DNA of 64,000 nucleotides from Anaerolineae bacterium (GTDB taxonomy: Bacteria > Chloroflexota > Anaerolineae > JAAEKA01), in contig JBAQWV010000041.1 of the NCBI GenBank assembly GCA_049299095.1, positions 64,278 to 128,277 of the forward strand, written 5' to 3'. The notes under the pieces were generated by a model. The model saw only the letters and a list, made by a program, of their open reading frames with translations. It was not told the origin of the DNA and searched no databases. Shown piece after piece: positions 16,380 through 62,413 of this stretch (its first letter is position 1; each line of letters opens with the position of its first letter). The position numbers and the translations under genes were made by a program.

Positions 16380-16526
16380 AATGGGTACCTTTCTGTTGTA
16401 CATAGAAACTGTGCCAACCACCATGTTGGCAGTCTCCACCCGACAACCAACGCTCTCATTGTACATTATAACGCAACCCAGTCTTGTCGTCAACGCAAAA
16501 ACACGACGACTCGCACGCCAATTGGT

Positions 16527-22324: not shown

Positions 22325-22346
22325 AATATTCACCTCGTGCCATATT

Positions 22347-22392
22347 TTATCATTATGTGGCACATTTTGAAAAACATGCCACATAATGATAA
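22347..22392. promoter_or_regulatory. perfect 16-bp inverted repeat (TTATCATTATGTGGCA-14 nt-TGCCACATAATGATAA); likely VapB autoregulatory operator
   Basis: Perfect palindrome immediately upstream of or overlapping the vapB start, in the divergent promoter region. Confidence 0.6.
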
Positions 22393-36795: not shown

Positions 36796-36998
36796 AGCAA
36801 ATAGCCTGTATTCGCCGCGGCCTCTTCACCACGCCGGTGACATGTGGTCGCGCACGCAAGGCGGGCAAACTGCCCGCAGTCTTGCTATTTCCGCCACGTT
36901 GGGCTACAATCACACTCCGGCCAGGTCAAAGCATCTGGCAATTGGCTTGTGCGGTGCTGTCAAAGCTGAAACCGCGCAGCCGAAGGGTAGGCAATCCT

Positions 36999-37733: not shown

Positions 37734-37759
37734 GACCGTTGACTTTGGAAGGCAGGACT

Positions 37760-39469: not shown

Positions 39470-39475
39470 ACGAGT

Positions 39476-40594: not shown

Positions 40595-40596
40595 GT

Positions 40597-43035: not shown

Positions 43036-43089
43036 TCGTAAGCTAAACCAGAAGATCGCATGTGATGGAATGATAACAGGAGATATCTT

Positions 43090-45396
43090 ATGAAACGCCT
43101 GCTTAATCTAGCCTTGTTGACAACCTTGCTGGCATCGCTTTTCCTGCTGCCGACTTCTGTTGTCCAGGCTGATACGGATGTTCCGCCGCCAACCAACTGC
43201 TTGTATCCCTCAGCCGCAGATCGCTTTGGCATAACGGTGTACTCCTCCGATGAAATCACCCGCTACAACGTGACTCCATTGTCAGCCGGACGCTATCTGA
43301 ATTGGCGCGCCGATCTGACGCCTCCCCGCCCGAACGCCATACCGTATTATTTCATGGTACGTGTGGGGGAAAACTCATTTTTTCCCAATGTGGATACTTT
43401 GAAATCCGTTGCTTTCAACAATCCCGGCTCTACCTGGATCGTAGGGAATGAAGCGGATGTGATCTGGCAGGATAACACCACGCCCGCAGCTTATGCGCGT
43501 GTCTATCACACGGTCTATAACGCGATTAAGTCAATTGATCCCACAGCCAAGTTTGTCATAAGCGGTGTTGTTCAGGTTTCACCGTTGCGTTTACATTGGC
43601 TTGATTTGGTGTGGGATAGCTATTATTCCATGTACGGTACGGAGATTCCTGTTGATATCTGGAATATCCATACTTATATAGCAAATGAGATGCATCAGGA
43701 ATGGGGATTTGAAATTCCCCCAGGCATTCCTAATGCTGTTGGATATTCCAATCATCCGGGTACCGATTGGAGCGAAGTAGCAATCACCGGAGCCAGTGGT
43801 GGCACCATTCATCAAAGTCGCATTCCCGGGGCAAAAGCGACATTTGCGTTTCATGGAGCAGACGTGACTTTGTATCTGTGGACAGGGCCTGACGCAGGTA
43901 TTGCAGAAATTTATGTTGATCAAGTGGCAGCGCCAGTGGCCGAAGTAGACCTGTACTCCCAGACGCCAGCCTCAATTGAGTATACCCTCACCGGTTTGGT
44001 CGCTCCAGGCGGTATTCTGACGGACAGACACAATATTCGCGTGCAGGTTACAGGACGTCGCAACAGCGCAGCAACCGATACATGGATCAAGGTGGATGCT
44101 GTTGCCGCACCTTCAACGGCCAGCCTGCCTGGGGGGCGTTTTGAGGATAACAGCCCGCTGCGGGCGCGTATCATTACCTCGATTGATGCTCACGATAACC
44201 TGGAAGTGATCGCCCAGCAAATTCTCGATTTTCGCCAGTGGATGCTGGAGCATGGTCAGCGCAACAAGCCGCTTATCAACACAGAGCACGGCATCCTGAT
44301 GACCGAAGACCTCGGCTTTGACTATACGCGCGTTCGCACCTTCATGCTCAACAGCTTTAATCTTTTCCTCAACCAACTCGTGGATACCAACCTCGGCTAT
44401 CCCGCGGACGATAACCGTCTGTTGCAGGAATGGTTCTGGTTTGCTCTGGCCGTGGACGATTTTGAAGGTCGCACCACAGCAACCGGATTATTCAGCGAAG
44501 CGACGCGCACCATCAAGCCACTCGGCACAGACTTTAGTAATTATGTCAGCGCGTTGGCCCAGAATTACACCGATCTGGAAGTCTATGCGGGCCAGGCCAC
44601 GCCCTACTGGCCGATTTTTGCCGGCCAGTCCAGCTTATTGCATATCGAAGCGTTGCTGCGCAATCGTGGTACTATAGCCAGTGGGCCTTTCAATGTGAAT
44701 TTCCGCGCCGGCAACGGCACTTTGTTGCAAGCCCTGCCGAATCCTGGCTTGCCCAAACGCTTCGATCCTGGGTACATCGTTCCGGTCAGTTACGACTGGG
44801 TCGTACCGATGACCGCCGGACGCGGCATCAAGATCATTGCCGACGAAGAAAACGTTGTGCCGGAGCCATGCAACCCCAACAACGAATATTACCTATCGAT
44901 TCCTTTCCAGTCAGGAACCGATCTGGCGCTAGTCAATCTGCGTACCAATCCTGCCCCGCTGTCCCCAATTCGTCCAGACACCACCACCACGATCCGCTTG
45001 CAAGTTGACTTGCGCAACCTCGGCGGCGTCGGCACCTCTGCCTCACAAGTGCAGGTCAAGTTTTGGCACGGTAACCCCGATGCTGGCGGTCAGCTCATCG
45101 GCACACAAACCTTCACCCCGGCCAATACCACCCTGCCCGTTACCGTCACGCTGGACTGGCCCGATCGTGGTGTCGGACAGTACGAAATTTACGCGCGTGT
45201 GGACACTGTCGCGGGCGACACCAACTTGCAAAACAACACACAGCACCTGACTGTGCTACAATCCGCTACACTATTCAGTTTCCCAATCACAAAATATAAT
45301 TTCCGTGAGAGCAGTGCCAACGCGGGTTCGTATGCCGAAAACTCTTTGTGGGCCGAACCGCGCGCTGCCTTCCCACTGCCCCAACCGGAGCAATAA
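43090..45396 (+). CDS. secreted glycoside hydrolase paralog (PF11790-like core) with inserted and C-terminal beta-sandwich (CARDB-like) domains
   Basis: Signal peptide; WIVGNEAD and INTEHG motifs homologous to the upstream gene; about 300 aa of extra C-terminal domains; visibly lower GC. Confidence 0.6.
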   Translation: MKRLLNLALLTTLLASLFLLPTSVVQADTDVPPPTNCLYPSAADRFGITVYSSDEITRYNVTPLSAGRYLNWRADLTPPRPNAIPYYFMVRVGENSFFPNVDTLKSVAFNNPGSTWIVGNEADVIWQDNTTPAAYARVYHTVYNAIKSIDPTAKFVISGVVQVSPLRLHWLDLVWDSYYSMYGTEIPVDIWNIHTYIANEMHQEWGFEIPPGIPNAVGYSNHPGTDWSEVAITGASGGTIHQSRIPGAKATFAFHGADVTLYLWTGPDAGIAEIYVDQVAAPVAEVDLYSQTPASIEYTLTGLVAPGGILTDRHNIRVQVTGRRNSAATDTWIKVDAVAAPSTASLPGGRFEDNSPLRARIITSIDAHDNLEVIAQQILDFRQWMLEHGQRNKPLINTEHGILMTEDLGFDYTRVRTFMLNSFNLFLNQLVDTNLGYPADDNRLLQEWFWFALAVDDFEGRTTATGLFSEATRTIKPLGTDFSNYVSALAQNYTDLEVYAGQATPYWPIFAGQSSLLHIEALLRNRGTIASGPFNVNFRAGNGTLLQALPNPGLPKRFDPGYIVPVSYDWVVPMTAGRGIKIIADEENVVPEPCNPNNEYYLSIPFQSGTDLALVNLRTNPAPLSPIRPDTTTTIRLQVDLRNLGGVGTSASQVQVKFWHGNPDAGGQLIGTQTFTPANTTLPVTVTLDWPDRGVGQYEIYARVDTVAGDTNLQNNTQHLTVLQSATLFSFPITKYNFRESSANAGSYAENSLWAEPRAAFPLPQPEQ

Positions 45397-45399
45397 CCT

Positions 45400-46227
45400 A
45401 TGCCTAATCAATCATCATCACCGCAACGCAGTTCTGCTGCGCGCCTTATCAGCTTTGTCTTCGTCGGCATTCTGATTCTGGGTTTTCTAGCCGCACTACC
45501 CGCCGCATGGGCGCTGCCCGCTCAAATCCCTGATTCGCAGACCGTGCCAACATTGACCCCGACGCGCCCCAGCGGCGGCGGCTCACAGCCCACCGCCACA
45601 TCACCTTCCGGCGGCGGTTCGCCCACGAACACCCCCCAACCCGGCGCCACGGCAACCCCCGTGCCGCCCCCCGGCGCCACAGCGACCGCCACACCGCCCC
45701 CCGGCTCCACAGCAACACCGACGCCAACGGCCACCGTCACACCGACTGCGACACCAACGCTGGTGCCCGCGCCGATTCAGCCCGCGTCGCAGTCGTGCTG
45801 GACAATTCCGACCCCCGGCTTCCAGCCAGAGCAGGCGTTGAGCGCGTCTTGGACCGCCGAAAGCGATCAGTACCTGGTGATGCCGGGTCAAACGATTACC
45901 CTGCGTCTGATTGTCAAAAACACCGGCACGAACCAGCTTGCCAACCTGACCGTCTGTAATCCGATCATGACGGGGCTGGTGGTAGGCAAGCCAACAAGCA
46001 CGCAGGGTCGTGTCTGGGTCGAACAGCCCGGCATTGTCGCCCAATTAGGCAACCTGGCAGCTGGCAGCACTGCGCGCATTGACGTTAAGTTGTCCATTCC
46101 TGCCACGCAGCCGCTGGGCGGCGTCATCGAGAATCAAGGCTGGCTGTTCAGCGGCAACCAACGTTCCAGCACCAACCTGCTGACTTGGGCCTTGCCGCCC
46201 GCCTACTTGCCGAAAACAGGGCAGTGA
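45400..46227 (+). CDS. DUF11-like surface protein with N-terminal TM, Pro/Thr-rich linker and LPKTG motif at the extreme C-terminus
   Basis: Ends ...AYLPKTGQ* followed by a TGATAA double stop; no hydrophobic/basic tail after LPXTG. Confidence 0.6.
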   Translation: MPNQSSSPQRSSAARLISFVFVGILILGFLAALPAAWALPAQIPDSQTVPTLTPTRPSGGGSQPTATSPSGGGSPTNTPQPGATATPVPPPGATATATPPPGSTATPTPTATVTPTATPTLVPAPIQPASQSCWTIPTPGFQPEQALSASWTAESDQYLVMPGQTITLRLIVKNTGTNQLANLTVCNPIMTGLVVGKPTSTQGRVWVEQPGIVAQLGNLAAGSTARIDVKLSIPATQPLGGVIENQGWLFSGNQRSSTNLLTWALPPAYLPKTGQ

Positions 46228-46247
46228 TAATCTGTCGGTCAAGACCG

Positions 46248-47735
46248 ATGCACCGTTTTTCGTATCTTGAAAGGCTGCCAATACTGGTCTTCGGACTGGC
46301 ATTGGCAGCCTATGGTTTAACCGCTCCTGCCGGTTTGACATGGGCCAACGCCAGCGCGGACGGTGGCGACCTCGCCACTGCCGCACTAGTACGCGGTGTT
46401 CCCCATCCCACTGGCTACCCCACCTGGACACTGCTGGCAATTCTGTGCAGCAAGCTGCCCTTCGGCGCGCCCATCTGGCGCATCACCCTGCTGTCCATGC
46501 TCAGCGGCGCGGCCGCGGCGGCATTAGTGACAGCCACCGTGCCGCGGTTGCTGGGTTCCCGCAACTTGGCAACTACCATGGCCGCGGCGCTGGCCGGCCT
46601 GACCCTCGCTCTGTCACCACTGCTGTGGGGACAAGCCATTGTCATCGAAGTCTACACGCTGCACGCCGCGCTGGCCGCGGCCATTCTTTGGGCATTAGTG
46701 CGCTGGCAGTCGGCCCCACAGCGGCGGTGGGCCGCCCTGACAGGCGCGTTGTTCGGCGTCGGCCTCGGCAATCACCTAACCCTGATCTGGCTGCTGCCCG
46801 CCGCGCTCGCCGTAGCCTGGCCCCACCGCCGTACCTGGCCGGTCTTTTTGGCTGCGCTGCTGGCCGGGCTGACGGTCTACATCTATTTGCCCCTCGCATC
46901 CGCGGGCAATCCGCCAGTCAATTGGGGCCAGCCGCACACCCTGAACGGCTTCTGGTGGCTCGTATCGGGCCAGTTGTACCACGGCTACGCCTTCGCCGTT
47001 CCGTGGCCGACTGTGCCCGCCCGCGTGGCCGCGTGGACGCGCGAGCTGTGGCGCGACTTCATGCCCTGGGGCGTGATCGCGGCCCTGGCCGGTTTTGGCT
47101 TGCTGTACGCGCGCCAGCGCGCCCTGACACTCGGCATGGCGTTCAGTTTGCTGCTCAGCCTGCTTTGGGCAATCGGCTACAACACCAGCGATTCGCTGCT
47201 ATTTGCCCTGCCCGGCTGGGTTATCATCGCGCTCTGGCTGGGAGTGGGCCTGGCTGCGGCGCTGAACTGGCTGGCCGCGCGTTGGCCGCATCGTCTGGGA
47301 CTGGTCGTGCTGTTGACTGCTGCGCTGGTGCTGGCTCCGGCTGCCCTCCGTTGGCCAAACCTCAACCTGCGCCACGACCAGAATGCAGAACAGTTTTACC
47401 AGCAAGTGCTAGCCGCCCTGGAGCCGGACGCCGTAGTGCTGACCGCGGGTGACCGCGCCACCTTTGCGTTGTGGTATGCACGCTACGGCCTGCGGTTGCG
47501 TCCCGATGTTGCACCAGTCAGCCATGCACTGTGGGCGCTGCCCAGCTATCGCGCCACAGTCATCGCCCAGCACCCCGCGCTGTCCAGCCTGGCCGCCGCG
47601 GATTGGCCCCAATTTACCCAGCCGCTGTATTGGGCGGAAACAGGCGCAGCCCCCCCCGCTCTGCCCGGCCTGACGCCTGTACAGACCGCATCTGGCGATG
47701 GTTGGATCGTGTGGCGCTTGCTCCCCACCGATTGA
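46248..47735 (+). CDS. DUF2723/TMEM260-like polytopic membrane protein (putative GT-C glycosyltransferase)
   Basis: VPHPTGYPT motif after TM1; more than 10 TM helices; start placed at the Met preceding TM1 (the ORF is open from 46185). Confidence 0.55.
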   Translation: MHRFSYLERLPILVFGLALAAYGLTAPAGLTWANASADGGDLATAALVRGVPHPTGYPTWTLLAILCSKLPFGAPIWRITLLSMLSGAAAAALVTATVPRLLGSRNLATTMAAALAGLTLALSPLLWGQAIVIEVYTLHAALAAAILWALVRWQSAPQRRWAALTGALFGVGLGNHLTLIWLLPAALAVAWPHRRTWPVFLAALLAGLTVYIYLPLASAGNPPVNWGQPHTLNGFWWLVSGQLYHGYAFAVPWPTVPARVAAWTRELWRDFMPWGVIAALAGFGLLYARQRALTLGMAFSLLLSLLWAIGYNTSDSLLFALPGWVIIALWLGVGLAAALNWLAARWPHRLGLVVLLTAALVLAPAALRWPNLNLRHDQNAEQFYQQVLAALEPDAVVLTAGDRATFALWYARYGLRLRPDVAPVSHALWALPSYRATVIAQHPALSSLAAADWPQFTQPLYWAETGAAPPALPGLTPVQTASGDGWIVWRLLPTD

Positions 47736-47795
47736 TGTCTGTGCGGGCCATTCTGGCGCTTGCCAGAATGTTTACCCTGTGGTAGGTTACACGTT

Positions 47796-49745
47796 ATGAC
47801 TGTCAACCCTGTTTCTTCTTCCTCACCGCGTCGCTTTTCCTGGAAAACCATCCTGGCCATGCTGGCTATCGTGCTGGCCGTGGTCGCTGTGTTGCTAGCT
47901 GTGCGCGTGATACGCGCGGCCAACGCGGCACGCTCGGCCATGAACGAACTGCAAGTCCTGCAAGACCTCGACCCGGCACTCATCACCAGCCTCGATCCGT
48001 CCACCTTGCGCGATCTGCGTGACCGCTTCGCTCGTCTTGAAGGCGATTTCACCATCATTGAGCGTCAGGCCGGGCCATTTTTGCCCTTGACGCGTCACAT
48101 GGGTTGGCTGCCGCGCTATAGTGCCGAAGCGCAGGCCGCGCCAGCCTTGCTCGATTTAGCGCAGAATGTGGCGACCGCTGGCCGCGCGGGCATGGACGGC
48201 GCAGCGGTGATCGCGGAAGCCCTGAAAGCACAGGAAACTGGCGGCAGCGCACTGGCACGGCTGGTTCCAGCCCTGCAACAGACACAGCCGAGCTGGCAGG
48301 AAGTGGACGATGCACTGGTTGCCGTGGCCGCAGCGCGCAGCCACCTGGATTTGACCAGCCTCGACCCGCGTTTGACCCACCAACTGCAACAGCTCGACAC
48401 CTATTTGCCCCTGCTGCAAACCGGGTCGGCGCTGGCGCGCCTGGCCCCGCAGTTGCTCGGCGCAGAAGGCGCAAAGACCTACCTGGTATTGCCACAGAAC
48501 AGCGATGAACTGCGCCCCACTGGTGGCTTCATCAGCGGCGTCGGCCTGCTGCCACTTGACCGCGGCGAGCTGGGTGAGGTGGATTTCGAGGACAGCTACA
48601 CGATCTACAACGACCAGGTGGATCACCCACTGGCCCCCGCCGATCTGGAAGCGACGATGGGCGCGCAGATTTTACTCTTCCGCGACGCCAATTGGTCGGT
48701 GGATTTCCCGGCGTCCGCGGGCGTGGCCCAGGCGCTCTATCAACTCGATACCGGTCGCAGCACCGATGGCGTTATTGCTTTTGATCTGGTCGCCACGCAA
48801 CGCTTGATGGCCGGGCTGGAGCCGCTGACCCTGCCAGGCTATCAGGAGCCGCTCACCACCGGCAACGTCCTCGCGGCCCTGCGCGCGGTCTGGAACGAAC
48901 CATTAACCACGGAAGGCACCGCCAGTCAAAGCACCACCTCCGACTGGTGGCTGCATCGCAAGGACTTCATGGGCGATCTGGCCGCGGCCGCGCGTACCAA
49001 ACTAGAAGCCGGACAGGTGGACATGGGCAAGCTGGCGCAAGCGTTGTACAGCAGCTTACAGGAAAAGCATCTCCTGCTGGCGATGAATGACCCCGCCGTG
49101 CAGGCCTTGCTGGATGAAGCCGGTTGGAGCGGCAAGGTGACGCCGGGCGATGGTGATTATCTGTTAGTGGTAGATAGCAACATCGGCTGGAACAAGGTCA
49201 ACAGCGTGGTGCAACGCAACACCAACTACACCATTACGCCGAACGCCGACGGCAGCGCCCGTGCCCAACTAGAATTGGTCTATCAGCATACCGGCACAAC
49301 CTCCGCCGACCTGTGTGTACACGTGGCGCGCTACGGCGATTCCTATGAGGACATGGTGCGCCGCTGCTATTTCAACTATCTACGCGTGCTGGTACCAGAC
49401 GGGGCAAAACTGGTGCAGGCGGAGGGTTTCAACGAGCCAACGGCCAGCACGCAGCGCGGTGAGCGTAACACCACGCAGTTCGCCGGTAATCTGACCGTGC
49501 CGCCAGGTGAAACCCGTCGCGTCCTGTTGACCTACGACCTGCCCGCGGGTCTGGTCACGCCCAACGCCTATCATCTGCGCATCCAAAAGCAGCCGGGCAT
49601 TCCAGCCTGGCCGGCGCGCGTGGTGGTGGCTGATCCCGTGGGGGGCTGGCAAACTGCTGCCGCGGGGAGCAAACCAACCGACGCGGGCTTGCTGACACCG
49701 GTCGAGCTGAGCCGCGATACCGATTTGGTCTGGACGCGACCCTAG
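47796..49745 (+). CDS. membrane-anchored DUF4012-like protein
   Basis: N-terminal TM; YLVLPQNSDELRPTGGFISGVGLL motif recalled as DUF4012-like; 649 aa. Confidence 0.45.
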   Translation: MTVNPVSSSSPRRFSWKTILAMLAIVLAVVAVLLAVRVIRAANAARSAMNELQVLQDLDPALITSLDPSTLRDLRDRFARLEGDFTIIERQAGPFLPLTRHMGWLPRYSAEAQAAPALLDLAQNVATAGRAGMDGAAVIAEALKAQETGGSALARLVPALQQTQPSWQEVDDALVAVAAARSHLDLTSLDPRLTHQLQQLDTYLPLLQTGSALARLAPQLLGAEGAKTYLVLPQNSDELRPTGGFISGVGLLPLDRGELGEVDFEDSYTIYNDQVDHPLAPADLEATMGAQILLFRDANWSVDFPASAGVAQALYQLDTGRSTDGVIAFDLVATQRLMAGLEPLTLPGYQEPLTTGNVLAALRAVWNEPLTTEGTASQSTTSDWWLHRKDFMGDLAAAARTKLEAGQVDMGKLAQALYSSLQEKHLLLAMNDPAVQALLDEAGWSGKVTPGDGDYLLVVDSNIGWNKVNSVVQRNTNYTITPNADGSARAQLELVYQHTGTTSADLCVHVARYGDSYEDMVRRCYFNYLRVLVPDGAKLVQAEGFNEPTASTQRGERNTTQFAGNLTVPPGETRRVLLTYDLPAGLVTPNAYHLRIQKQPGIPAWPARVVVADPVGGWQTAAAGSKPTDAGLLTPVELSRDTDLVWTRP

Positions 49746-49779
49746 CGCGCCCCGTGGCGCACCCATTCAGGAGCAATTT

Positions 49780-50259
49780 GTGCGAGGACGGTTCCTTCTT
49801 TTCTGCTTGATCATTTGTCTGAGCCTCAGCGCGGTCTGGGCCAGTACGGCCGCGGCCAGTGGTCGCCCGCAGGGCAAGCCCGGCCAGCCAATTGTAATTA
49901 GCTGGTCCACCGAGACCGAAGTCAACACCGCCGGGTTCAATGTGTACCGCGCGCTGTCCGAGGATGGCCCGTGGGAAAAAATCAACGACCGGCTAATCCC
50001 CGGTTCGTCCGATCCTTTGCGCGGCGGCAACTACACCTTCACCGATAGTAAGGTGCAAGCGGGCATCACCTACTGGTACGAACTGGAGGAAGTCGAACTG
50101 AGCGGCCAAACCACGCGGCTGGAGCGCACTAAAGCCACCGCGCGCGGCACTGGCTTGTTCGATGGCCTGCAATGCTTCGGTGGCTTGTCCGCGCTGACCG
50201 TCTTCAGCCTGGGATTGGTCTGGACGCAGCGGCGCAAGGTAGCTTATGGCTATTCCTGA
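49780..50259 (+). CDS. small secreted FN3-like protein with C-terminal hydrophobic anchor plus RRK
   Basis: Signal peptide, FN3-like core (ISWSTETEVNTAGFNVYRAL...), C-terminal CFGGLSALTVFSLGLVWTQRRK; 14-nt overlap with the downstream radical SAM gene. Confidence 0.5.
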   Translation: MRGRFLLFCLIICLSLSAVWASTAAASGRPQGKPGQPIVISWSTETEVNTAGFNVYRALSEDGPWEKINDRLIPGSSDPLRGGNYTFTDSKVQAGITYWYELEEVELSGQTTRLERTKATARGTGLFDGLQCFGGLSALTVFSLGLVWTQRRKVAYGYS

Positions 50260-51886
50260 GCTGCTGCTGATCAGTCCGCCAGACTACGCTACGCGCGAAT
50301 TTCGCGGCGCGCAGCCGCTCGGCATCGCCTATCTGGCTGCGGCCTTACGTGCCGCGGCCATCCCCGCGACCCTGCTGGATGCCAATGTAGACGGCCCGCT
50401 GCCCTTTAACGACCTCGTCGCGCAGGTGCTGGCTTTCGTTGCGCGCGCGCGCGCCGACGGGAAACGTCCCGTCGTGGGTATTTCCACCGTTTCGCAGGTG
50501 ATGGGCACGGTGGCCGCGCTCGCCCAGCGCATCAAAGCAAGCGATCCCGCCGTGTTGATCGTCGTGGGGGGCTATCATGCCACCTTTGCCGACCGCGAGA
50601 TTCTGGCCGACTTCCCCGCGGTAGACTTGTGCGTGCGCGGCGAAGGGGAGTTAACCATCGTTGAGCTAATGCAGCACTGGCAGGCCGCGGGCCAGGCTGG
50701 GCCGCGTGCGATCAGTTGGGAGCAAATTGCCGGCGTCACCTGGCGACAGGGAGACGAAATCGTTGCCAACCCCAGCCGCCCAAACAACAACGACCTTGAT
50801 GCGTTGCCCTTTCCAGCCCGCGATCTGTTGCCGCCATTGCAAGCCTACGCGGCGTATGCCGACACCGTGGCGGGCAAGCTGCGGCGCAAGGCTTCGATGA
50901 TCTCCAGCCGCGGCTGCCCTTTCCATTGCAACTTCTGTTCGATCATTGCCTTTTACGCGGACGCGGGCGGCAAGCCCTGGCGCGGCCGCAGTGTGGAAAA
51001 TGTCGTTGCCGAGATGGTGGATTTGGCAGAACAGAGCGGAGCCAGTCATTTTGAATTCCAGGACGACAACTTCTTCGTGCGGCCCGACCGCGCGCTGGCA
51101 ATTGTAGAAGCCTATGCGCGCACCGGCCGCGACTTCTCCTTTGCCTTTTTGACCCGCGCCGATCAGGTGGTGAAAGGAGAACGCTACTTCCCCGCCCTGC
51201 GGCAAGCCGGGCTGCGCTATGTCAGCGTCGGCATCGAAAGCGGCAGCGAGGCGTCGCTGGAGCGCATGGTCAAGCAAACCGGGGTGGAGATCAACCGCCG
51301 CGCGCTGCAAATTCTGCACGACAACGACATCGCGGCCCAGGTGGAGTTCATCATGTTCGAGCCAGGCAGCACCCTGGCCGACCTGCGCGATAATATGCGT
51401 TTCATTGAGCAACAGGGCTTGTTCGGCTATTTCCCGCCGCTGATCCTCGGCAGCTTGCTGCTAATGCCCGGCACGCCCGCTCGCGCCCAAATCGAAGCGG
51501 AGCGTGGCCTGCGCGGCAGCATTCACCAATCCTTGCCCTATGAGTTTCTCGATCCACAGGTGACTGCGCTGCGCCAACTGCTCGACGATTTCCAGCGGCA
51601 ACTGGGCAGTGCGTGGTATGAATTGGCCTTCAGCCTGCTGGACGGCATCCCCGAGCTGGAAATTGCGCAGCGCAGCCAGGCCGCGCGCCTTACCCCACGC
51701 CAGTTGGCCGAATTAAAGCTGGAATTCTTTGCCCTGACGCGCCTCCCTTATCAATTATTGCGCAATGGCTTGCAGGCTGCGGATGAGGGAACATTGCCAA
51801 GCGAGCAGGCCGCGCTGTTGGCGCGTGCCGCCAGCGAGTTCGCAGAGGTGCAAGCGCGCGTTGCCGCGCTGCGGTCGCCAGCCTAG
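50246..51886 (+). CDS. B12-binding radical SAM protein (class B radical SAM)
   Basis: N-terminal cobalamin-binding Rossmann-like domain (LLISPP...VVGGYHATF), then CPFHCNFC (Cx3Cx2C) radical SAM core; 546 aa. Confidence 0.8.
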   Translation: MAIPELLLISPPDYATREFRGAQPLGIAYLAAALRAAAIPATLLDANVDGPLPFNDLVAQVLAFVARARADGKRPVVGISTVSQVMGTVAALAQRIKASDPAVLIVVGGYHATFADREILADFPAVDLCVRGEGELTIVELMQHWQAAGQAGPRAISWEQIAGVTWRQGDEIVANPSRPNNNDLDALPFPARDLLPPLQAYAAYADTVAGKLRRKASMISSRGCPFHCNFCSIIAFYADAGGKPWRGRSVENVVAEMVDLAEQSGASHFEFQDDNFFVRPDRALAIVEAYARTGRDFSFAFLTRADQVVKGERYFPALRQAGLRYVSVGIESGSEASLERMVKQTGVEINRRALQILHDNDIAAQVEFIMFEPGSTLADLRDNMRFIEQQGLFGYFPPLILGSLLLMPGTPARAQIEAERGLRGSIHQSLPYEFLDPQVTALRQLLDDFQRQLGSAWYELAFSLLDGIPELEIAQRSQAARLTPRQLAELKLEFFALTRLPYQLLRNGLQAADEGTLPSEQAALLARAASEFAEVQARVAALRSPA

Positions 51887-52923
51887 CCGTTCAGAGCTTC
51901 TCGCAGCACGCGGGGGATTTGCGTGCGGTCGCTGCCCAGTTGCAGGCGATAAATCGGGGTTTCTTCCACCAACTGCACCAAAAAATCTAGATGACGGCGG
52001 GCTTGGGCGGGGTCTTGCAGGTCTACGCTAAAAAAGAGCAATTCGCTCAATACAGCGGTTTTATTGGCGGGGACGAGGAGGGTATCGCGGCGGTCGGTGA
52101 CTTCCGGAGCGAGGATCACATGTACACGCGCGCGCGGTGCAATCTGTTGCGGAAACGCCTCGGTCAGGATCGCCTGGCGTTTGCCGGTATGGCTTTGCTG
52201 GGCCGACAGGTGTGGAGCCAGCGCGGGAAACCAGGCCGCGGTCTTGGCTGTCACATCCATCGTCGCCATCAACGCCACCACGTCCACCGCGCCCGCGTCC
52301 GTGCGTTGCAGCAGCGTGGTATCGTCACCGAGAAAGTCGAGGCCCGCACTGACCGCTGTCAGCATGGTGGTGGTCTTGCCCGCGCCCGAGCGGCCGGCGA
52401 TCAATGCGGCACGGCCCGCGCAGGCAATCGCCGACGCGTGGATCAGATGCAGGCCATGTGGGCGCAACAGTTGGTACAGCGAGATAAAAATCGCCTGTTT
52501 GTAGTGACGCAGCGGCCATTGCTCCGGTGCGTGTACCAGTGCCACTGCGTGACCGGTTGTCTGGTTGAGTGCGGTCAGCATCACATCACCGTGGCGCGTG
52601 AACAGATAGGGTGGATGGTGAAACTCGCTGGTCTCCTGCTCGTGCGAAACTTGCTGCGGCAGCCACGGCAAGGCTGGCAGCGGGTCCTGGCCCAGATCAA
52701 CCAGATCCAACGTCAGTTGGCTTGTCTCACTGGCGGCAACCACTGGACAGGCCAAAGGACGCAACACCTGCTGGAGCAAGGTCGGCGATGTGCTGCGCAG
52801 GGTGACGGTGCAGTCACCAATGTGTAGGGTAACGGTTTGCAGGGGGGTACGGGCTGTTTGGCTGAAGACTTGCGCAAAGCAAGCCGCTACATCAACCGCA
52901 GCTGTAGAAGAAAAGGTAGTCAA
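51883..52923 (-). CDS. HprK-related serine kinase (lasso-peptide tailoring kinase family, PadeK-like)
   Basis: P-loop IAGRSGAGKTTTML in an HprK-C-like domain; TTG start as in the ORF track; downstream of the PqqD-like gene and precursor in the same orientation. Confidence 0.6.
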   Translation of the reverse strand: MTTFSSTAAVDVAACFAQVFSQTARTPLQTVTLHIGDCTVTLRSTSPTLLQQVLRPLACPVVAASETSQLTLDLVDLGQDPLPALPWLPQQVSHEQETSEFHHPPYLFTRHGDVMLTALNQTTGHAVALVHAPEQWPLRHYKQAIFISLYQLLRPHGLHLIHASAIACAGRAALIAGRSGAGKTTTMLTAVSAGLDFLGDDTTLLQRTDAGAVDVVALMATMDVTAKTAAWFPALAPHLSAQQSHTGKRQAILTEAFPQQIAPRARVHVILAPEVTDRRDTLLVPANKTAVLSELLFFSVDLQDPAQARRHLDFLVQLVEETPIYRLQLGSDRTQIPRVLREALNG

Positions 52924-53043
52924 ACGAAAAATATAACGAAGGAAAGCTGGGGACCAACTTTCCTTCTTATGAGCTTACGCGTGAATTGCCGAAAAATCCG
53001 GCTATAAAATTCGATAAAGAGCCACGACATTGTGGCCGGGGCC

Positions 53044-53172
53044 TTAGTTATTACCGGGCAGCAGCCAATCGGGGCTGGGGGAAACAGTGCCCAGCGTTAC
53101 CTTCTGGAGTCGCTGATGCTTGGTCAAAGTCGGGGTCTGGTAGGTCTTCTTGACAGGCGTGCTCTGATTCAC
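53044..53172 (-). CDS. lasso-peptide-like RiPP precursor (42 aa): MNQSTPVKKTYQTPTLTKHQRLQKVTL|GTVSPSPDWLLPGNN
   Basis: GTG start 6 nt after GGAGGT. Leader carries YxxPxL (YQTPTL) and Thr at -2; predicted core begins with Gly1 with Asp at position 8. Lies between the PqqD-like and kinase genes. The ORF track's longer form (to 53256) lacks an RBS. Confidence 0.6.
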   Translation of the reverse strand: MNQSTPVKKTYQTPTLTKHQRLQKVTLGTVSPSPDWLLPGNN

Positions 53173-53273
53173 AATGATACCTCCGTGTTGGTTAATTGCG
53201 CTTAGGGCGCTGTTCGCGATACGACGTATGATGCTGCCACCGGGCAGCGAAGTCACATTTCACAGTTGACAAA

Positions 53274-53558
53274 TTACACAAAAACGAGCAATCCTTCGTC
53301 GGTCAATTGTTCGGCCAAACGGAGAACATCGTCAACTACCTGAGTTCGATCCGCCTCATACTCTTGCCACACGCTATCAACCAGATCTTCGACCGTGTGC
53401 TGACCGTCTATGTGCTGCCAGATTAAGGAACCCACACTGTCAAGGCTGTAGTAGTCGCCTGTTGCAAGATTGATTAGCAGGAACTGGTCTTCTACCAGCC
53501 GATCAATCACAGTATTCGTGTTTTTAGCCAGCAGAGTTTGCAAAGAAAGACGGGACAT
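53274..53558 (-). CDS. PqqD-family RiPP recognition element (lasso B1-like)
   Basis: LINLATGDYYSLDSVGSLIWQHIDGQHTVEDLVDSVWQEYEAD...VLRLAEQLTDEGLL matches the PqqD/RRE profile; 94 aa. Confidence 0.8.
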   Translation of the reverse strand: MSRLSLQTLLAKNTNTVIDRLVEDQFLLINLATGDYYSLDSVGSLIWQHIDGQHTVEDLVDSVWQEYEADRTQVVDDVLRLAEQLTDEGLLVFV

Positions 53559-53607
53559 AGAGTATTGGATGCAAGGAAAGATGCAATTACATGCGGAATC
53601 TGCTAAA

Positions 53608-53637
53608 AATTATAGCATAGCGGGAAAGAATTTGTCA
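53608..53637 (-). promoter_or_regulatory. strong sigma70-like promoter (TTGACA-18 nt-TATAAT) driving the PqqD-precursor-kinase operon
   Basis: Consensus hexamers on the minus strand about 45 nt upstream of the PqqD start, in an AT-richer 310-bp intergenic region. Confidence 0.55.
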
Positions 53638-53868
53638 AGCCAGTTGCGCAGTTTAGCTTGTCTGATGCTTGTACAATGCAAATCCCGATCTGCTTAATAA
53701 CGCACTGTCACAGTATAATCCAGTTTGCTAAACTTGCAAACCAGCGATCGGTTTTGGCAGGCGGCAGGCCAAAGCCTCAAGCACCCCGATGCTCAGGGTG
53801 CTTGAAATAACATTGGCACAACACCAGTTTCAACGCACACAGTTACCAGACAGCAAGGTTCCTCTGTC

Positions 53869-55989
53869 CTAGCGGCTGACCGCAACGAAAGTCAGCCGGA
53901 ACGATTCGTCGCCCATGCTGCCTGACAACCGCAGCTCATTGCCGGAGATTTCGTATTGGTTGGCGACCTGCAAACGGGCCAAGAAAAGATTTTCCTGATC
54001 CAAAATCGCCGGCGCGCAGGTTTGGTTTGAGATGCTGAGCGGGCCAAAGCTGATGCTGGAACCCGTTGTGCTGTAGGTGCCCTCGTAAGTATTACAGCCC
54101 GCGGAGCCGGTGATACGCCCTTCGCTGAAGTTGGCGGTAATGCGCGCGTCAGGCATGGCGTTTTGCAGCGCCCACGGCGTGGTTTGCAGCCCCAGCAGCG
54201 GGGTTGTGGTCGGCGTATTCGCTGTCACCTGCACGGTGGTGCGCGCCTGACTGGTCTGGCCGCCTGCATTGCTGACCGTCAGTGTGATGACGTACAGTCC
54301 GGGTTGAGCGAAAACATGACTGGCAGTAGGAATATTGGCTGCGCCGCCATCACCGAAGTCCCACCGATAGCTGTTCAGCCCGCCGACCGGCGTTGAGCTG
54401 CTGCCGTCAAAGGTGACCGCCGCGCCTGCGAGCGTTTGCGAAGGCCCGCTGATGATGGCAACAGGCGGCGCGACCGTAGTGGGGGTGGCCGTGGGTGCGA
54501 GGATGGTTACTTGCTGGACGGCCACGCCGGTCAGTCCGGCGTCATCGGTGACGACCAGGGTGATGTCGAACGTTCCTGCGGTGCTATAGGTTTTGGCACT
54601 TTGCGCCTGGGTGTCGCCCGTACCGTCACCGAAACGCCATTCGTAGCGCACGATCTTGTGACCGGTGGCTACGCTGGACGCGCGGCCATCGAAAGTGAGT
54701 GGCTGGCCGATCATGCCTTGCGTCGGGCCGGTGATGATGGCGGTGGGGGGCTGATTAGCCTGGAACTGCCAGCTTGCGGCCAGTTGAGCATCGCCGCTGA
54801 AATGAACGTATTCGATGACGACACTGTGATCGCCGCGCGTTAACAGTCCGCTGTCGGCTTCCAGTTGCCGCATGGCCGCGTTCTGCCAGTCGTTGACAAT
54901 CGGACGACCATCTACCCACACACGTACCCCCCCCTGAGCTGCGACGCGGAAGCGGTAGTTGCCTTCCTCGAAGAATACCTGACGCGACCAGCGCGCAGAG
55001 AAATTGTCTGCGGGTACGCCGGTGACGGGTTCGCCCGCTCCCCAGTTGAAGCTGATGTCCGGGTCGTCCTGTACCACGGCCGCGGGCGCTTGCAGGTTGG
55101 GATTAGCAAAATATTCCCCCTTCCACCCGCGGAAGGTAGTGAGCGGTGTCGGGGTAGGCGTGGGTAACGGCGGCGGGGTAACTACGGGCACCGCGTCGGT
55201 GTTGCGCGCCTGGATGCGCTCGCTGGCAACCCAGCCAGCGCCGCCCTGAATGTTATCCGCGCGGATTTGCCACCAGGCGTTGTCCTCGGTCTTGCCGATG
55301 ATCGTGGCTGAACCGCCCGCGGGCAGGATGCCGATGACGGTATATGACTCGCCGGGACCGTTGCGCACCGAGACATTGGTCAGCGCGATAGCGGTGGCAA
55401 CGTCAGGTGTTAAAGTCACGGTGCTGGTGATGGCCGTTGACGTTGCGCTGCCGGGCGTGATGGTGGCGGTGCTGCCGCCGCTGGGGCTGGCAAACAGGCG
55501 GCTCAGTGCCCAGAGGATGAGCAGCAACACCAGGCCCAGTCCGATTACGGTGGCGATCAGACCGACGCGCAGGCCAGAAGCTGGTGGTTCTTCGCCGGGC
55601 ACGGGTTGCGCGGGGCGGGGGGATGCTGTGGGGGTGCTGGTGGTGTCGGGCCGCGGCTGCGCGCTGGTGGCTGAAGGTGGCAGGGGGCGGGGCGCAGCCG
55701 GCACAGGCGCGACCGGACGCGGGGTCACTGGCGGCGGTGCGACGGGCAGCGTCACGCCCAACTGCGCCAGCGCGGCTTCATCGTCGGCGTCAAGCGGCAG
55801 CACCGAAGCAGGCAGCGTGTTGAGGGCCGTCACAAGCGCGGTCTGTGACAGAAAATCGAGCGAAGTCTGCGCGTCCTGTTCGATGCGCAGACTGTCGCGT
55901 GGGTTAAGCTTATAGATGGCGGCTGGTGGCCCTTCGTAGATCACCAGCGTGCTTTGGGGGCGTCGGAGTACACGGGGTAAATGAGGCAT
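53869..55989 (-). CDS. membrane-anchored surface protein with SH3b, PA14, two PKD and a C-terminal META/HslJ-like domain
   Basis: Pro-rich segment plus TM; PA14 (FRGWKGEYFANPNL...); PKD (WRFGDGTGDT, WDFGDGGAAN); META-like C-terminus (GSAGCNTYEGTY...); 706 aa. Confidence 0.65.
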   Translation of the reverse strand: MPHLPRVLRRPQSTLVIYEGPPAAIYKLNPRDSLRIEQDAQTSLDFLSQTALVTALNTLPASVLPLDADDEAALAQLGVTLPVAPPPVTPRPVAPVPAAPRPLPPSATSAQPRPDTTSTPTASPRPAQPVPGEEPPASGLRVGLIATVIGLGLVLLLILWALSRLFASPSGGSTATITPGSATSTAITSTVTLTPDVATAIALTNVSVRNGPGESYTVIGILPAGGSATIIGKTEDNAWWQIRADNIQGGAGWVASERIQARNTDAVPVVTPPPLPTPTPTPLTTFRGWKGEYFANPNLQAPAAVVQDDPDISFNWGAGEPVTGVPADNFSARWSRQVFFEEGNYRFRVAAQGGVRVWVDGRPIVNDWQNAAMRQLEADSGLLTRGDHSVVIEYVHFSGDAQLAASWQFQANQPPTAIITGPTQGMIGQPLTFDGRASSVATGHKIVRYEWRFGDGTGDTQAQSAKTYSTAGTFDITLVVTDDAGLTGVAVQQVTILAPTATPTTVAPPVAIISGPSQTLAGAAVTFDGSSSTPVGGLNSYRWDFGDGGAANIPTASHVFAQPGLYVITLTVSNAGGQTSQARTTVQVTANTPTTTPLLGLQTTPWALQNAMPDARITANFSEGRITGSAGCNTYEGTYSTTGSSISFGPLSISNQTCAPAILDQENLFLARLQVANQYEISGNELRLSGSMGDESFRLTFVAVSR

Positions 55990-56033
55990 CTTGCCTTGTC
56001 TCCTGAGGGTCGAAAGAAAAATGAAACGCCGAT

Positions 56034-56819
56034 TCAGGCGATTATCTGTTGATGCGCGTAAAGCAGCGGCAACTTGGCGGGTTTGATCCTGAATTTCGTA
56101 CCGTGGTTGTGGCCGGTACGGGCGTCAATGTCCACAAACACATGACCGTTTTCAAGTCCATCCAGCAATCCAGCAAATTTGAAGCCTTGCAAAATCATAA
56201 TACTGGAGTACCGAAAATATTCTTTGCCCGCTTCGAGTTTTCTTTCTGCCCGCACGAAAAAACTGTTGAGTAATTTTGTGCCTGCTTTGTTGCGCAGATC
56301 CTCGAATCCCCAATAAGGCTGTGGATCGAGTTCATGCAAGCCAACGCGGCCTGCTACATCTGCAAGCCAGAGATCATGCCTGGAATTGACTGCGTCAGGA
56401 TTGAAAGAGATCAATACTTTGTTCTCACTACGATCAATAGACACTTTAAAGCCGCGATCGCTGTGCGTCGCTCCCGTAATAGTCTGCCGGAAGCTCATTT
56501 CTGTGAACGCATAGCGCTCACCGGCTTTCTGGTGTGACCAGCCATACTGAGGTAGTAACACCGCTGGCACAAAACGTAGTGCACGCGGGGAAGGTTCCAT
56601 GTGAAAGAGCGTCACCAGCGAGTTGCTATCTACGCGGTGGGCTTTCAGTTCCCATTCGGCAGCGTTCGGGATGGGAAGGTTGTTTTCCTGAATTCCCAAC
56701 AGATCCTCCAGCGTATTGCCTATACTGCCCGCGTTGTCAGGGCGAGATCCGGCAATCCATCCCCTCGCTTTAATTTTGAGCAATTCCTCAATCAGGGTTT
56801 CTTTGGTATAGAGTTTCAT
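56034..56819 (-). CDS. type II restriction endonuclease, MvaI/BcnI family
   Basis: MKLYTKETLIEELLKIKARGW... about 260 aa resembling MvaI/BcnI; ATGA start/stop overlap with the upstream methyltransferase; lower GC than flanks. Confidence 0.6.
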   Translation of the reverse strand: MKLYTKETLIEELLKIKARGWIAGSRPDNAGSIGNTLEDLLGIQENNLPIPNAAEWELKAHRVDSNSLVTLFHMEPSPRALRFVPAVLLPQYGWSHQKAGERYAFTEMSFRQTITGATHSDRGFKVSIDRSENKVLISFNPDAVNSRHDLWLADVAGRVGLHELDPQPYWGFEDLRNKAGTKLLNSFFVRAERKLEAGKEYFRYSSIMILQGFKFAGLLDGLENGHVFVDIDARTGHNHGTKFRIKPAKLPLLYAHQQIIA

Positions 56820-57766
56820 TGATTGATTGGCGGTCGCCAGAAATCCAAAAGGTATTCGAACGTTGTACCCATCGTAATGTAATTGGAAGGCCAGCCAAAA
56901 ATGCCGACCCGGTTCACGATGTTGGTGCGATCCCAAATGATTGTGTTGCGCAACTCGTAGCCACGTTTGCGCAATTCCTCAACCAGGGCAATATGGATCG
57001 TGATGCGCTCATTTTCCCACCACATATCAGGTACATTGATGACGCAGTGGCCCTTGGGCTTCAAGAGCGGCAATAGCTGCTCAAAGATATCACCCATCGC
57101 TTGCGTATACTCTTCGAGCGGCATCGTGCCGAGGTCGCGCGGGTCTTGCGAATACTGCTCGACTTTGTCGAATTGTTCGTTCTTGCGCTCTTCACCCCGC
57201 CGCGACTTGTTCTTGCGTTTGCGGTTCAGTAAATTCGCGTATGGCGGGGATGTCCAGATCAAGCTGACACTTCCGGGGTGCAGGTAGTTGGCAATATGCG
57301 AAGCATCATCCTGGACAGCAATTTGCTGCGCCTGGTTGAAGAAATTATCGCTGGTGAGTCGCTGTTCGCACAAGTTGATGTATTTCTCTTGCAAGTCAAA
57401 GCCAACCGCATTGCGATTTAGTTCCTGTGCTGCGACCAACGACGTTCCGCTACCGACGAATGGATCAAGTACCAACTCACCTTCATGCGTGAACAATTCA
57501 ATGACCCGTTTGGCAAGAGAAACTGGAAACGTCGCGGGGTGCAAATCTTTATTGCGCACATCCTTGCCACTGTATGTAAACTGCCAAACACCTAGCTGAC
57601 TTTTAATCCAATCCTTGGCCGTCATACAGTTCAGATGATTGGCAGCACACTGGCAACTGCGTGTGGCGGGAACGGCCAGATGCAGCCGATAAAGCGGTGT
57701 ATTTTCGCGGATAGTGCGCGGCAGTGTCGTAGCTTCTGTGGGAGTTAAAATATCTACTGTTTCCAT
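56816..57766 (-). CDS. DNA N4-cytosine methyltransferase (M.MvaI-like, SPPY motif)
   Basis: FxGSGT motif I (DPFVGSGTS) and SPPY motif IV (IWTSPPYANL); start at internal Met of ORF 56816..57841; lower GC. Confidence 0.7.
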   Translation of the reverse strand: METVDILTPTEATTLPRTIRENTPLYRLHLAVPATRSCQCAANHLNCMTAKDWIKSQLGVWQFTYSGKDVRNKDLHPATFPVSLAKRVIELFTHEGELVLDPFVGSGTSLVAAQELNRNAVGFDLQEKYINLCEQRLTSDNFFNQAQQIAVQDDASHIANYLHPGSVSLIWTSPPYANLLNRKRKNKSRRGEERKNEQFDKVEQYSQDPRDLGTMPLEEYTQAMGDIFEQLLPLLKPKGHCVINVPDMWWENERITIHIALVEELRKRGYELRNTIIWDRTNIVNRVGIFGWPSNYITMGTTFEYLLDFWRPPINQ

Positions 57767-57854
57767 AAATCGTTTACCTGCTTCAAATAAGACGGTCTGC
57801 CCGGAATTATAACATCCGTTCTCTGAATGGGCGAATGACACGGGATATGCCTGT

Positions 57855-60984: not shown

Positions 60985-61312
60985 GCAAAAGTCATCGGCC
61001 GCACCGCGGCCCCAGCCCGTGCAGCAAAGTTGCTGCCTCATGGATCTATCAAGGAGGTGACATCCCCAAGATCTGGTGACGCGCGAGCTTCGGCGGGAAG
61101 CCTCGCGGACGCTGTATCCTGCTAAATGCAGCGCCCCTCCAGTCTGCACCCCCACTGCTGGCTTCGGCCAGTTCCCCATAACCGCCCAACCCGTGACCTG
61201 GACGCATGCTGTGGAAAAGCGGTTTCGGCGCTCATGCCCGGATGTCTGTCAACCATCTGACCGCAAAGTTCTGTTTTCCGTGGTGTGCTCAATTTCCAAG
61301 GAGTTGCCTTTC

Positions 61313-62413
61313 ATGGCAAGCGTAACTTACAAGAACGTCTACAAGCGCTGGGGCGATGTCATCGCCGTTAACGATTTCAACCTGGACATTCAAGACAAAG
61401 AATTCATGGTATACGTCGGTCCTTCCGGCTGCGGCAAATCCACCACCCTGCGCCTGCTGGCTGGCCTTGAAGAGATCAGCGACGGCCAGATTTTGATCGG
61501 TGACCGCGTGGTCAATGACGTGCCGCCCAAGGATCGTGACATCGCGATGGTATTCCAGAGCTACGCGCTCTATCCGCACATGTCGGTATACGACAACATG
61601 GCCTTCGGCTTGAAGCTGCGCAAGATGCCGAAGGAAGAAATTGATCGCCGCGTCAAGGAAGCTGCCGACGTTCTGAGCATTACCCAGTACCTGGATCGCA
61701 AGCCGAAGGCCCTGTCCGGCGGCCAGCGCCAGCGTGTGGCCGTGGGCCGCGCCATCGTGCGTAACCCCAAGGTCTTCCTCTTTGACGAGCCGCTCTCCAA
61801 CCTGGACGCCAAACTGCGCGTGCAGACCCGCGCCGAAATCACCAAACTGTGGCAAAACCTGGGCACCACCTTCATCTATGTGACCCACGACCAGGTGGAA
61901 GCCATGACGATGGCGACCCGCATCGCAGTCATGAAAGATGGCCTCTTGCAGCAGTGCGATACCCCGCAATATCTGTACGACCATCCCAACAACATCTTCG
62001 TCGCCGGCTTCATCGGCAGCCCCTCCATGAATTTCTTCGATGCCACCCTGGTTGAGGCCGATGGCAAGATGTACGCCGACGGCGGCACGTTCCGCCTGGA
62101 AGTGCCCGGCAAGAACCTGGCGCTGGCTCAGAAGCACAAGGGCAAGCAGATCGTTTTCGGTATTCGCCCCGAAGACATTCAGAGCCGCGAATTTACACCG
62201 CCCGGCATCGCACCCGCCTACATGAAATCCAAGGTGGACGTGACGGAAATGATGGGTAGCGAAATCTTCGCCTACCTGTTGAGTGGCAAGAAGAGCTTCG
62301 TCGCCCGCCTTGACCCGCGCACACGCGCCCACGTCGGCGAAGACCTCGATCTGGTAGTCAACATGGACAACATGCACATGTTCGATCCCAAGACCGAGCA
62401 GCGCCTCGTCTAA
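61313..62413 (+). CDS. sugar ABC transporter ATP-binding protein (MalK/UgpC/MsmK family)
   Basis: Walker A GPSGCGKST, signature LSGGQRQR, Walker B FLFDEPLSNLD, C-terminal TOBE-like domain; RBS AAGGAG. Confidence 0.9.
   Translation: MASVTYKNVYKRWGDVIAVNDFNLDIQDKEFMVYVGPSGCGKSTTLRLLAGLEEISDGQILIGDRVVNDVPPKDRDIAMVFQSYALYPHMSVYDNMAFGLKLRKMPKEEIDRRVKEAADVLSITQYLDRKPKALSGGQRQRVAVGRAIVRNPKVFLFDEPLSNLDAKLRVQTRAEITKLWQNLGTTFIYVTHDQVEAMTMATRIAVMKDGLLQQCDTPQYLYDHPNNIFVAGFIGSPSMNFFDATLVEADGKMYADGGTFRLEVPGKNLALAQKHKGKQIVFGIRPEDIQSREFTPPGIAPAYMKSKVDVTEMMGSEIFAYLLSGKKSFVARLDPRTRAHVGEDLDLVVNMDNMHMFDPKTEQRLV

Follow-up and report, generated by a model that had tools for sequence, protein, structure and literature searches.

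A candidate RiPP module of Anaerolineae with a lasso-type recognition pair, an HprK-related kinase and a conserved B12-radical SAM gene

What is made by a locus that carries the recognition protein, the short precursor and the kinase known from phosphorylated lasso peptides, when the enzymes that close a lasso are not found around it? The question is raised by a 64,000-nucleotide stretch of an Anaerolineae genome (Chloroflexota; contig JBAQWV010000041.1, forward-strand positions 64,278 to 128,277), which is called the window in this paper and in which positions are counted from its first letter. A preliminary description, made from the letters of the DNA alone, placed there a strong promoter and three co-oriented genes, for a PqqD-family recognition protein, a 42-aa precursor and an HprK-related kinase, and suggested a lasso peptide whose cluster was either split across the genome or matured by a non-canonical route. 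The promoter and the trio are present as described, on the minus strand (Table 1). We consider it probable, if well short of certain, that the trio and a convergent gene for a B12-binding radical S-adenosylmethionine (SAM) enzyme form a four-gene module for a peptide made on the ribosome and modified after translation (RiPP), of a non-lasso type, whose linear product would be modified by both the kinase and the radical SAM enzyme. The module is a candidate new RiPP family of Anaerolineae.

The peptide encoded in the window (MNQSTPVKKTYQTPTLTKHQRLQKVTLGTVSPSPDWLLPGNN) comprises a putative leader, MNQSTPVKKTYQTPTLTKHQRLQKVTL, and a putative core, GTVSPSPDWLLPGNN, and belongs to a family in which the leader motif YxxPxLxK[H/Y]QRLQKVTL is near-invariant. 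From the precursor homologues, we compiled 38 distinct cores. Position 1 is Gly in 36 of them and Ala in two, every core has Thr2, 36 have Ser or Thr at position 4, and most of the cores have a W-L-x-P-G motif close to the C-terminus. The mid-core differs among homologues in both length and sequence (13-27 residues). Nearly every precursor codon varies synonymously while the amino acids are kept, indicating that selection acts on the protein sequence of the precursor, and we consider from this codon pattern that the precursor is a real coding peptide. In Candidatus Amarolinea, the precursor has an ATG where the window has its GTG start. All 29 database clusters of the precursor are unnamed or annotated as “hypothetical protein,” none of the 29 has a Pfam match, and a search of solved structures with the peptide returned no match. 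When metagenomes were searched with the peptide as the anchor, it was met only inside the module.

Variants of the precursor were also seen. At locus L030 (70-514, plus strand), two tandem precursor genes lie upstream of the kinase gene; they have the same leader and the cores GTVTPQFSGESWLQPGQ and GTVTPQFSDDSWLQAGTK. At L021 (4313-4507) and L029 (2631-2825), an extra Ser/Thr-rich stretch of 13 residues comes after ...PGQ, where the precursor ordinarily stops (SSASSKTTSSEVS); a precursor therefore need not end in PG[N/Q/K]. [quoted passage not shown] Its two blocks, CTTGACAAAT and CTATGCTATAAT, are unchanged in an alignment of five loci, i.e., the window, L002, L005, L006 and L010, whose kinases are 45-66% identical to that of the window. 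Between the precursor and the kinase genes, a strong hairpin (-18 to -28 kcal/mol) occurs in the same place in all 10 loci examined, with stem variants such as GGAAAGTTGG and GGGAAGTT, and Candidatus Amarolinea has another hairpin and T-run at the equivalent position. A search of Rfam over positions 49500-54200 gave no match, so no known riboswitch or RNA accounts for the hairpin, which fits an attenuator that holds the precursor message above the enzyme message. An attenuator-like hairpin and T-run after the ORF (open reading frame) would also suit an explanation in which no RiPP is made: the small ORF would be a regulatory leader peptide or a chance ORF, and the PqqD protein and the kinase would regulate envelope synthesis through protein phosphorylation, HprK/P proper being a regulatory protein kinase. 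We regard this explanation as very improbable, because the amino acids are conserved through synonymous codon variation, the ribosome-binding site and the start position are conserved, a YxxPxL motif of the RRE-binding kind stands beside an RRE gene, and the precursor occurs in tandem copies and is confined to the module.

The 94-aa protein had been assigned to the PqqD family, and its Pfam match (Table 1) bears this out. We compared it with the RREs of lasso peptides (B1 proteins) and with LppB of the linear polyphosphorylated peptides (LPPs; lppA-K-B-S-D-N) of Bacillota (Popov et al., Nat Commun 2026; PMC13381572). Its best solved relatives are TbiB1 (5v1u, E=5.1e-11) and PbaB1 (9x90, E=6.6e-8), whereas LppB (9x8z) reached only 0.17. 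A BLASTP search of the sequences in the supplement of the LPP paper gave 44.7 and 38.9 bits with lasso RREs and <=34.7 bits with LPP RREs. Two lasso-specific NCBIfam models stayed below their cut-offs, namely NF033536 lasso_PqqD_Bac (51.6 bits, cut-off 80) and a second model (38.4 bits, cut-off 70). Judged by these comparisons, the window RRE resembles the lasso B1 proteins more closely than it does LppB and falls outside the LppB group. The leader is of lasso type as well: counted from the core Gly, it has Tyr-17, Pro-14, Leu-12 and Thr-2 in the lasso-type register, followed by core Gly1 and Asp8, and the lasso_cyano leader model NF033528 matched the precursor at E=1.4e-3, under its threshold. 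The preliminary reading of an RRE-dependent, RiPP-type unit with a lasso-type leader is thus upheld.

The lasso itself is another matter. The window peptide would fit a split lasso cluster, in which a Gly1-Asp8 lasso, made by a cyclase and a B2 protease whose genes lie in another part of the genome, is afterwards phosphorylated, since it combines the lasso-register leader, Gly1, Asp8 and a 7-residue tail that includes Trp9 with an RRE closest to TbiB1 and PbaB1. Among the 38 cores, however, Asp8 is not conserved. Asp or Glu occurs at positions 7-9 in 12 and is absent there in 26; 13 cores have no acidic residue at all, and where one is present its position ranges from 5 to 14. In close relatives, Asp8 of the window is replaced by Asn, Ser, Gly or Lys. 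With so few acceptor acids at positions 7-9 and so many acid-free cores, a macrolactam does not appear to be the chemistry of this family, and macrolactam formation by a lasso cyclase cannot, as far as the aligned cores allow a judgment, be what the precursor family is selected for. We also scanned 49 ORFs, essentially all the large and many of the small ORFs of the window, against Pfam. Neither Asn_synthase (PF00733) nor Transglut_core3 (PF13471) was found among them, nor was any exporter, in agreement with the preliminary description, and the sole ABC protein was the ATPase of a MalK-type importer. Similarly, neither a cyclase nor a B2 protease was annotated within ~10 kb in any of 10 Pfam-annotated places with relatives of the module; nine of these places are represented by DNA (loci L001-L008 and L014-L016) and the tenth by its annotation. 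Finally, the strong purifying selection over the whole peptide is unlike that of typical lasso cores. A split lasso cluster is therefore highly unlikely to be the correct explanation, and that proposal is abandoned here, while the accompanying remark that the window core has no C-terminal Ser holds.

The third gene of the trio encodes the HprK-related kinase that had been predicted, although it lies below all the curated cut-offs. Its score with TIGR04355 was 39 bits (cut-off 200), and its weak matches to HprK-related families centre on the P-loop. The profiles of genuine HprK/P were not reached either (TIGR00679, 21.5 bits against a cut-off of 240; PF07475, 19.6 bits against a gathering threshold of 33.3), so we rejected a genuine HPr kinase/phosphorylase, with which the protein nevertheless shares the fold and the catalytic motifs. 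In precomputed annotation, it matches the Pfam family ScmC (PF27840). A search of solved structures with the kinase as a single sequence was uninformative, and profile and fold searches were required; these gave a confident PEPCK/HprK fold with an invariant His, P-loop and DD motif. The catalytic residues are intact, and the kinase is predicted to be competent. Homologues with 44-91% identity, in ~65 clusters, all come from metagenome-assembled genomes of Anaerolineae, Caldilineales or other Chloroflexota. In the profile search described next, the clade of the module accounts for only ~6 clusters (50% identity) with scores above 400 bits.

Beyond this clade, a profile search of 1.84 billion representative proteins returned a wider kinase family of 1,493 clusters (50% identity) at E<=1e-30. 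Ten of its top-scoring kinases outside the module clade were scanned, and none reached the curated HprK-related cut-offs. In P0206 and P0237 of this wider ScmC-like family, the kinase is fused to an N-terminal MftF-like GT2 glycosyltransferase, and P0246 and P0274, at about 570-600 aa, are of a similar size to these fused proteins. The fusions hint at a general tie of ScmC-like kinases to glycosylation. A distant homologue with 34% identity, P0067, apparently from a Gram-negative bacterium, is grouped with genes for a 148-aa PqqD protein, NTP_transf_5, three glycosyltransferases and a small radical SAM protein, i.e., its contig holds the same components in a different arrangement.

The remaining question within the module is whether the radical SAM gene belongs to it. 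In most genomes, including that of the window, this gene ends a long cell-envelope operon with genes for a GT2, a glycoside hydrolase, CARDB and DUF11 proteins, a TMEM260-like glycosyltransferase, DUF4012 and a protein of ~160 aa, and for this reason the preliminary description took it as part of the flank. The convergent gene reported there does exist, but it is more than a flank. The protein has both a B12-binding domain (PF02310, E=4.5e-19) and a radical SAM domain (PF04055, E=5.3e-16) with the cluster motif CPFHCNFC (CxxxCxxC), and its likeness to characterised B12-radical SAM families is generic (94-125 bits against cut-offs of 282-750). For synteny, we used loci L001-L016, to which either the kinase or the radical SAM protein had led, and 18 metagenome loci found through the peptide alone with a back-translation of KHQRLQKVTL. 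The order PqqD, small ORF, kinase was kept in every retrieved neighbourhood in which flanks were present, and wherever sequence beyond the kinase gene was available, the radical SAM gene was present and convergent with it. The 18 peptide-anchored loci had the same partner genes wherever their flanks were long enough. Genomes that carry the module include GCA_037045275.1, GCA_034717495.1, Candidatus Amarolinea dominans GCA_016707735.1 and GCA_016719785.1.

The most informative genome is that of Candidatus Amarolinea dominans, in which the four genes stand together and the DUF4012/TMEM260-like envelope operon is absent, the neighbours being GH2, an epimerase and MurJ. Its proteins are 37% (kinase), 30% (PqqD) and 53% (radical SAM) identical to those of the window. 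Because the radical SAM gene is kept with the trio here, where the rest of the neighbourhood differs, it belongs to the module. Furthermore, the next-closest homologues of the radical SAM protein (32-34% identity) adjoin PqqD genes, and their clusters contain several genes for radical SAM proteins, which indicates that this radical SAM clade is generally associated with RREs. The radical SAM protein is also the most conserved of the four, with 53-82% identity as against 35-66% for the kinase. Based on this distribution, we infer that the B12-radical SAM gene is a conserved fourth gene inherited with the trio and not a mere flank.

These observations bear directly on a simpler explanation, namely that the kinase alone makes a linear phosphopeptide in the manner of a minimal LPP and that the radical SAM enzyme, a mere neighbour, modifies a glycan or a lipid. 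Such a pathway would have a precedent, as the primary LPP product requires just the RRE, the kinase and a protease (PMC13381572), and the radical SAM gene of the window is indeed the last of an operon that runs from GT2 through the TMEM260-like gene and DUF4012, overlapping the preceding ORF by 14 bases. It would not account for Candidatus Amarolinea, where the radical SAM gene lies outside the envelope operon and is still convergent on the kinase gene, for the PqqD genes beside the nearest outgroup homologues, or for the radical SAM protein being the best conserved of the four. We consider this explanation rather unlikely.

The proposed four-gene pathway can be set out as follows. The PqqD protein would bind the YxxPxL motif of the leader, and the invariant K[H/Y]QRLQKVTL-[G/A]-T block would present the leader-core junction to the enzymes. 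The kinase would then phosphorylate a hydroxyl group where the core begins, with the invariant Thr2 or Ser/Thr4 as candidates by analogy with Ser3 of the LPPs. The B12-radical SAM enzyme would add a second modification, most simply a C-methylation, or make another radical change. The product would stay linear, and leader removal and export, if any, would depend on unlinked genes. The non-canonical maturation suggested in the preliminary description was therefore right in spirit, but the likely second modifying enzyme, the B12-radical SAM protein, had been overlooked.

Several points weigh against this pathway. Both chemistries are read from the families to which the two enzymes belong. The radical SAM gene is co-transcribed with envelope genes, overlapping the ORF upstream of it, both in the window and in most relatives, and its enzyme could have a substrate other than the peptide. 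Neither a protease nor a transporter is a conserved companion of the module, and a lasso cyclase may be encoded elsewhere in the genome of this organism. At the position corresponding to Ser3 of LppA, the Anaerolineae precursors have Thr, and a Ser3-to-Thr change in LppA abolished phosphorylation (PMC13381572). In addition, the likeness to LPP leaders is statistically modest: the LPP-leader hidden Markov model gave 5.2 bits, a score reached by 29 of 5000 shuffles, and the score of the gapless position-specific scoring matrix was reached by 105 of 20000.

The absence of a linked transporter or dedicated protease has a further possible meaning, that the peptide is the source of a cofactor or small molecule, like pyrroloquinoline quinone (PQQ) or mycofactocin, so that a small modified piece is cut out of it for use within the cell. 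The PQQ and mycofactocin pathways are built around a discrete PqqD protein and a radical SAM enzyme, and the module matches them in this; intracellular use would explain both the missing exporter and the near-invariant sequence of a peptide whose full length shows unusual conservation over an order-level span, and the wider kinase family includes the MftF-like GT2 fusions. On the other hand, a mid-core as variable as that described above would be uncommon in the precursor of a cofactor, two different precursor copies occur at one locus, and the module is tied to envelope genes and not to redox genes. Such a cofactor pathway seems to us distinctly unlikely, and a modified linear peptide remains the preferred reading.

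The features of the window are summarized in Table 1.

Table 1. Features of the module and its surroundings in the 64,000-nucleotide window.
Feature	Position	Strand	Remarks
Sigma-70 promoter	53638..53609	minus	TTGACA-18 nt-TATAAT, extended -10 TGcTATAAT; 12/12 consensus
PqqD-family RiPP recognition element, lasso-B1-like, 94 aa	53558..53274	minus	PF05402, E=8.4e-18
Predicted precursor peptide, 42 aa	53172..53044	minus	GTG start; GGAGG 7 nt before it
GC-rich hairpin of 13 bp with T-rich tail, terminator/attenuator-like	52966..52938	minus	Between precursor and kinase; also delimited as 52966..52928
Predicted kinase of HprK/PEPCK fold, Pfam ScmC family, 346 aa	52923..51883	minus	HprK-related matches below curated cut-offs
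B12-binding radical SAM enzyme, 546 aa	50246..51886	plus	Convergent; 3' end overlaps 3' end of kinase gene by 4 bases
Long co-directional cell-envelope/polysaccharide operon	34966-51886	plus	In order: PRK-like P-loop protein, sortase, Wzz + ParA-like tyrosine-kinase-type protein, LPG_synthase_TM, GT2, Glyco_hydro_cc, CARDB, DUF11, TMEM260-like GT-C glycosyltransferase, DUF4012, 159-aa secreted protein, radical SAM
Upstream side of module	53869-57841	minus	PKD/PA14/SH3/META surface protein, MvaI/BcnI-type restriction enzyme, N4/N6 DNA methylase
MalK-type importer ATPase	61076..62413
Second radical SAM/SPASM protein	16611-17645	plus	Unrelated; 35 kb off, by AMP-binding enzyme and thiolase
AMP-binding enzyme	14655-16493
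PIN-domain toxin and MazE-type antitoxin pair	21645-22384	minus
ORF, 620 aa	30525..32387	minus	No Pfam match at E<=1e-3
ORF, 292 aa	32875..33753	minus	No Pfam match at E<=1e-3

On the radical SAM side, relatives whose kinases are as little as 45% identical keep the gene order of the window from the glycoside hydrolase gene through to the radical SAM gene. On the other side, the restriction enzyme and the methylase of the window have a lower GC content at third codon positions, and the relatives annotated on that side have, in the equivalent position, two C25 peptidases, a gene of unknown function and an ABC-2 transporter. This indicates a break in synteny upstream of the module, possibly through insertion of the restriction-modification pair. 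We considered the C25 peptidases and the ABC-2 transporter as an obligate protease and exporter of the module and rejected them, as they have no counterparts in the window: a tblastn search of the window with these proteins of the relatives matched only an ABC ATPase, at 29% identity to the MalK-type gene.

Since an envelope operon ends in the radical SAM gene in most genomes, production of the peptide probably goes along with that of envelope material. The near-invariant peptide and its location with envelope operons, in abundant filamentous bacteria of wastewater, argue for a physiological role and against one as an antibiotic or in warfare, which would be unusual for RiPPs. Candidatus Amarolinea itself is a filamentous organism that causes sludge bulking. 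We put forward tentatively, as a possibility, a still broader interpretation: that in this module the lasso recognition machinery has given off a second branch, independently and outside Bacillota, and that the module represents the first class of RiPPs in which an HprK-like peptide kinase is joined by a B12-radical SAM enzyme. Its product would be a linear peptide, highly conserved, phosphorylated and methylated, that is made with the envelope or sheath polysaccharide machinery of filamentous Anaerolineae. If this is true, the peptide could act as a signal or, structurally, as a primer or an anchor, rather than as an antibiotic. The lasso-type leader and RRE would be a pair that can be reused for other chemistry, in a phylum without a prior report, and the very large and uncharacterised ScmC/HprK-related kinase family would gain a clear candidate substrate and partner enzyme.

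No description of this module was found in the literature searched. We compared it with four known systems. The first group comprises the B12-radical SAM peptide modifiers (the RiPP C-methyltransferases of TIGR03975, ApyD, and the CUAEP-tail systems), which resemble the module in combining B12 and radical SAM domains with an RRE and a small peptide; we know of none among them with an HprK-like kinase. The second is the SynChlorMet cassette (TIGR04248-04251; function unknown), a bioinformatic family in which ScmC is HprK-like, ScmD is PqqD-like, and ScmE and ScmF are radical SAM-SPASM proteins. The module is similar in its PqqD homologue, its ScmC-family HprK-related protein (PF27840) and its radical SAM chemistry, but the specific models were not reached (ScmC TIGR04249, 16.7 bits against 125; ScmD TIGR04248, 45.9 bits against 100), and it differs in that its radical SAM protein binds B12 and has no SPASM domain and in that a precursor peptide is identifiable. 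The third is the phosphorylated lasso peptide of the paeninodin type (A, B1, B2, C, D and kinase), with which the module shares a B1-type RRE, a leader in the lasso register and an HprK-related kinase, and from which it differs in having no cyclase, B2 protease, ABC exporter or conserved Asp/Glu acceptor, and no C-terminal Ser. The C-terminal Ser is the known phosphorylation site of the paeninodin kinases.

The closest likeness in outline is to the LPPs, the only cyclase-less relatives described, which combine an RRE with an HprK-like kinase, often lie within capsular polysaccharide loci and are stated, like the paeninodins, to be restricted to Bacillota (PMC13381572). The LPP leader carries the motif YxxPxVLxHQxIxFET, and Ser3 of the core is polyphosphorylated (PMC13381572). 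The two systems share a discrete RRE of lasso origin, a kinase of the HprK-like kind, a short precursor whose leader has YxxPx[V/L], the lack of a macrolactam cyclase, and a place in polysaccharide or envelope loci. In its spacing, the window leader agrees with the LPP register too, Thr then being at -1, and an ungapped alignment with the LPP leaders (Supplementary Data 1 of the LPP paper) matched Lys-18, Tyr-16, Pro-13, [V/L]-11, His-8, Gln-7, [I/L]-5, Thr-1 and [S/T]+3. There are also differences. The LPP cleavage motif F-E-T is absent from the module, with K-V in place of F-E at -3/-2. No SpI peptidase was found: four LppS homologues gave nothing better than E=0.4 in tblastn searches of the window and 16 loci, and no S24/S26 peptidase had a Pfam match among the scanned window ORFs. 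The NTP transferase LppN (PF14907) and the MsbA-like exporter LppD were also absent from these ORFs. Unlike the LPP systems, the module has a B12-radical SAM gene and a host in Chloroflexota, and its core is highly conserved where the LPP core is hypervariable. We therefore rejected membership of the LPP family, given the modest leader statistics, the missing SpI peptidase, NTP transferase and exporter, and an RRE outside the LppB group. The module resembles the LPP system in outline, as a lasso-derived recognition pair with a kinase, without a ring and at an envelope locus, and is not a member of that family.

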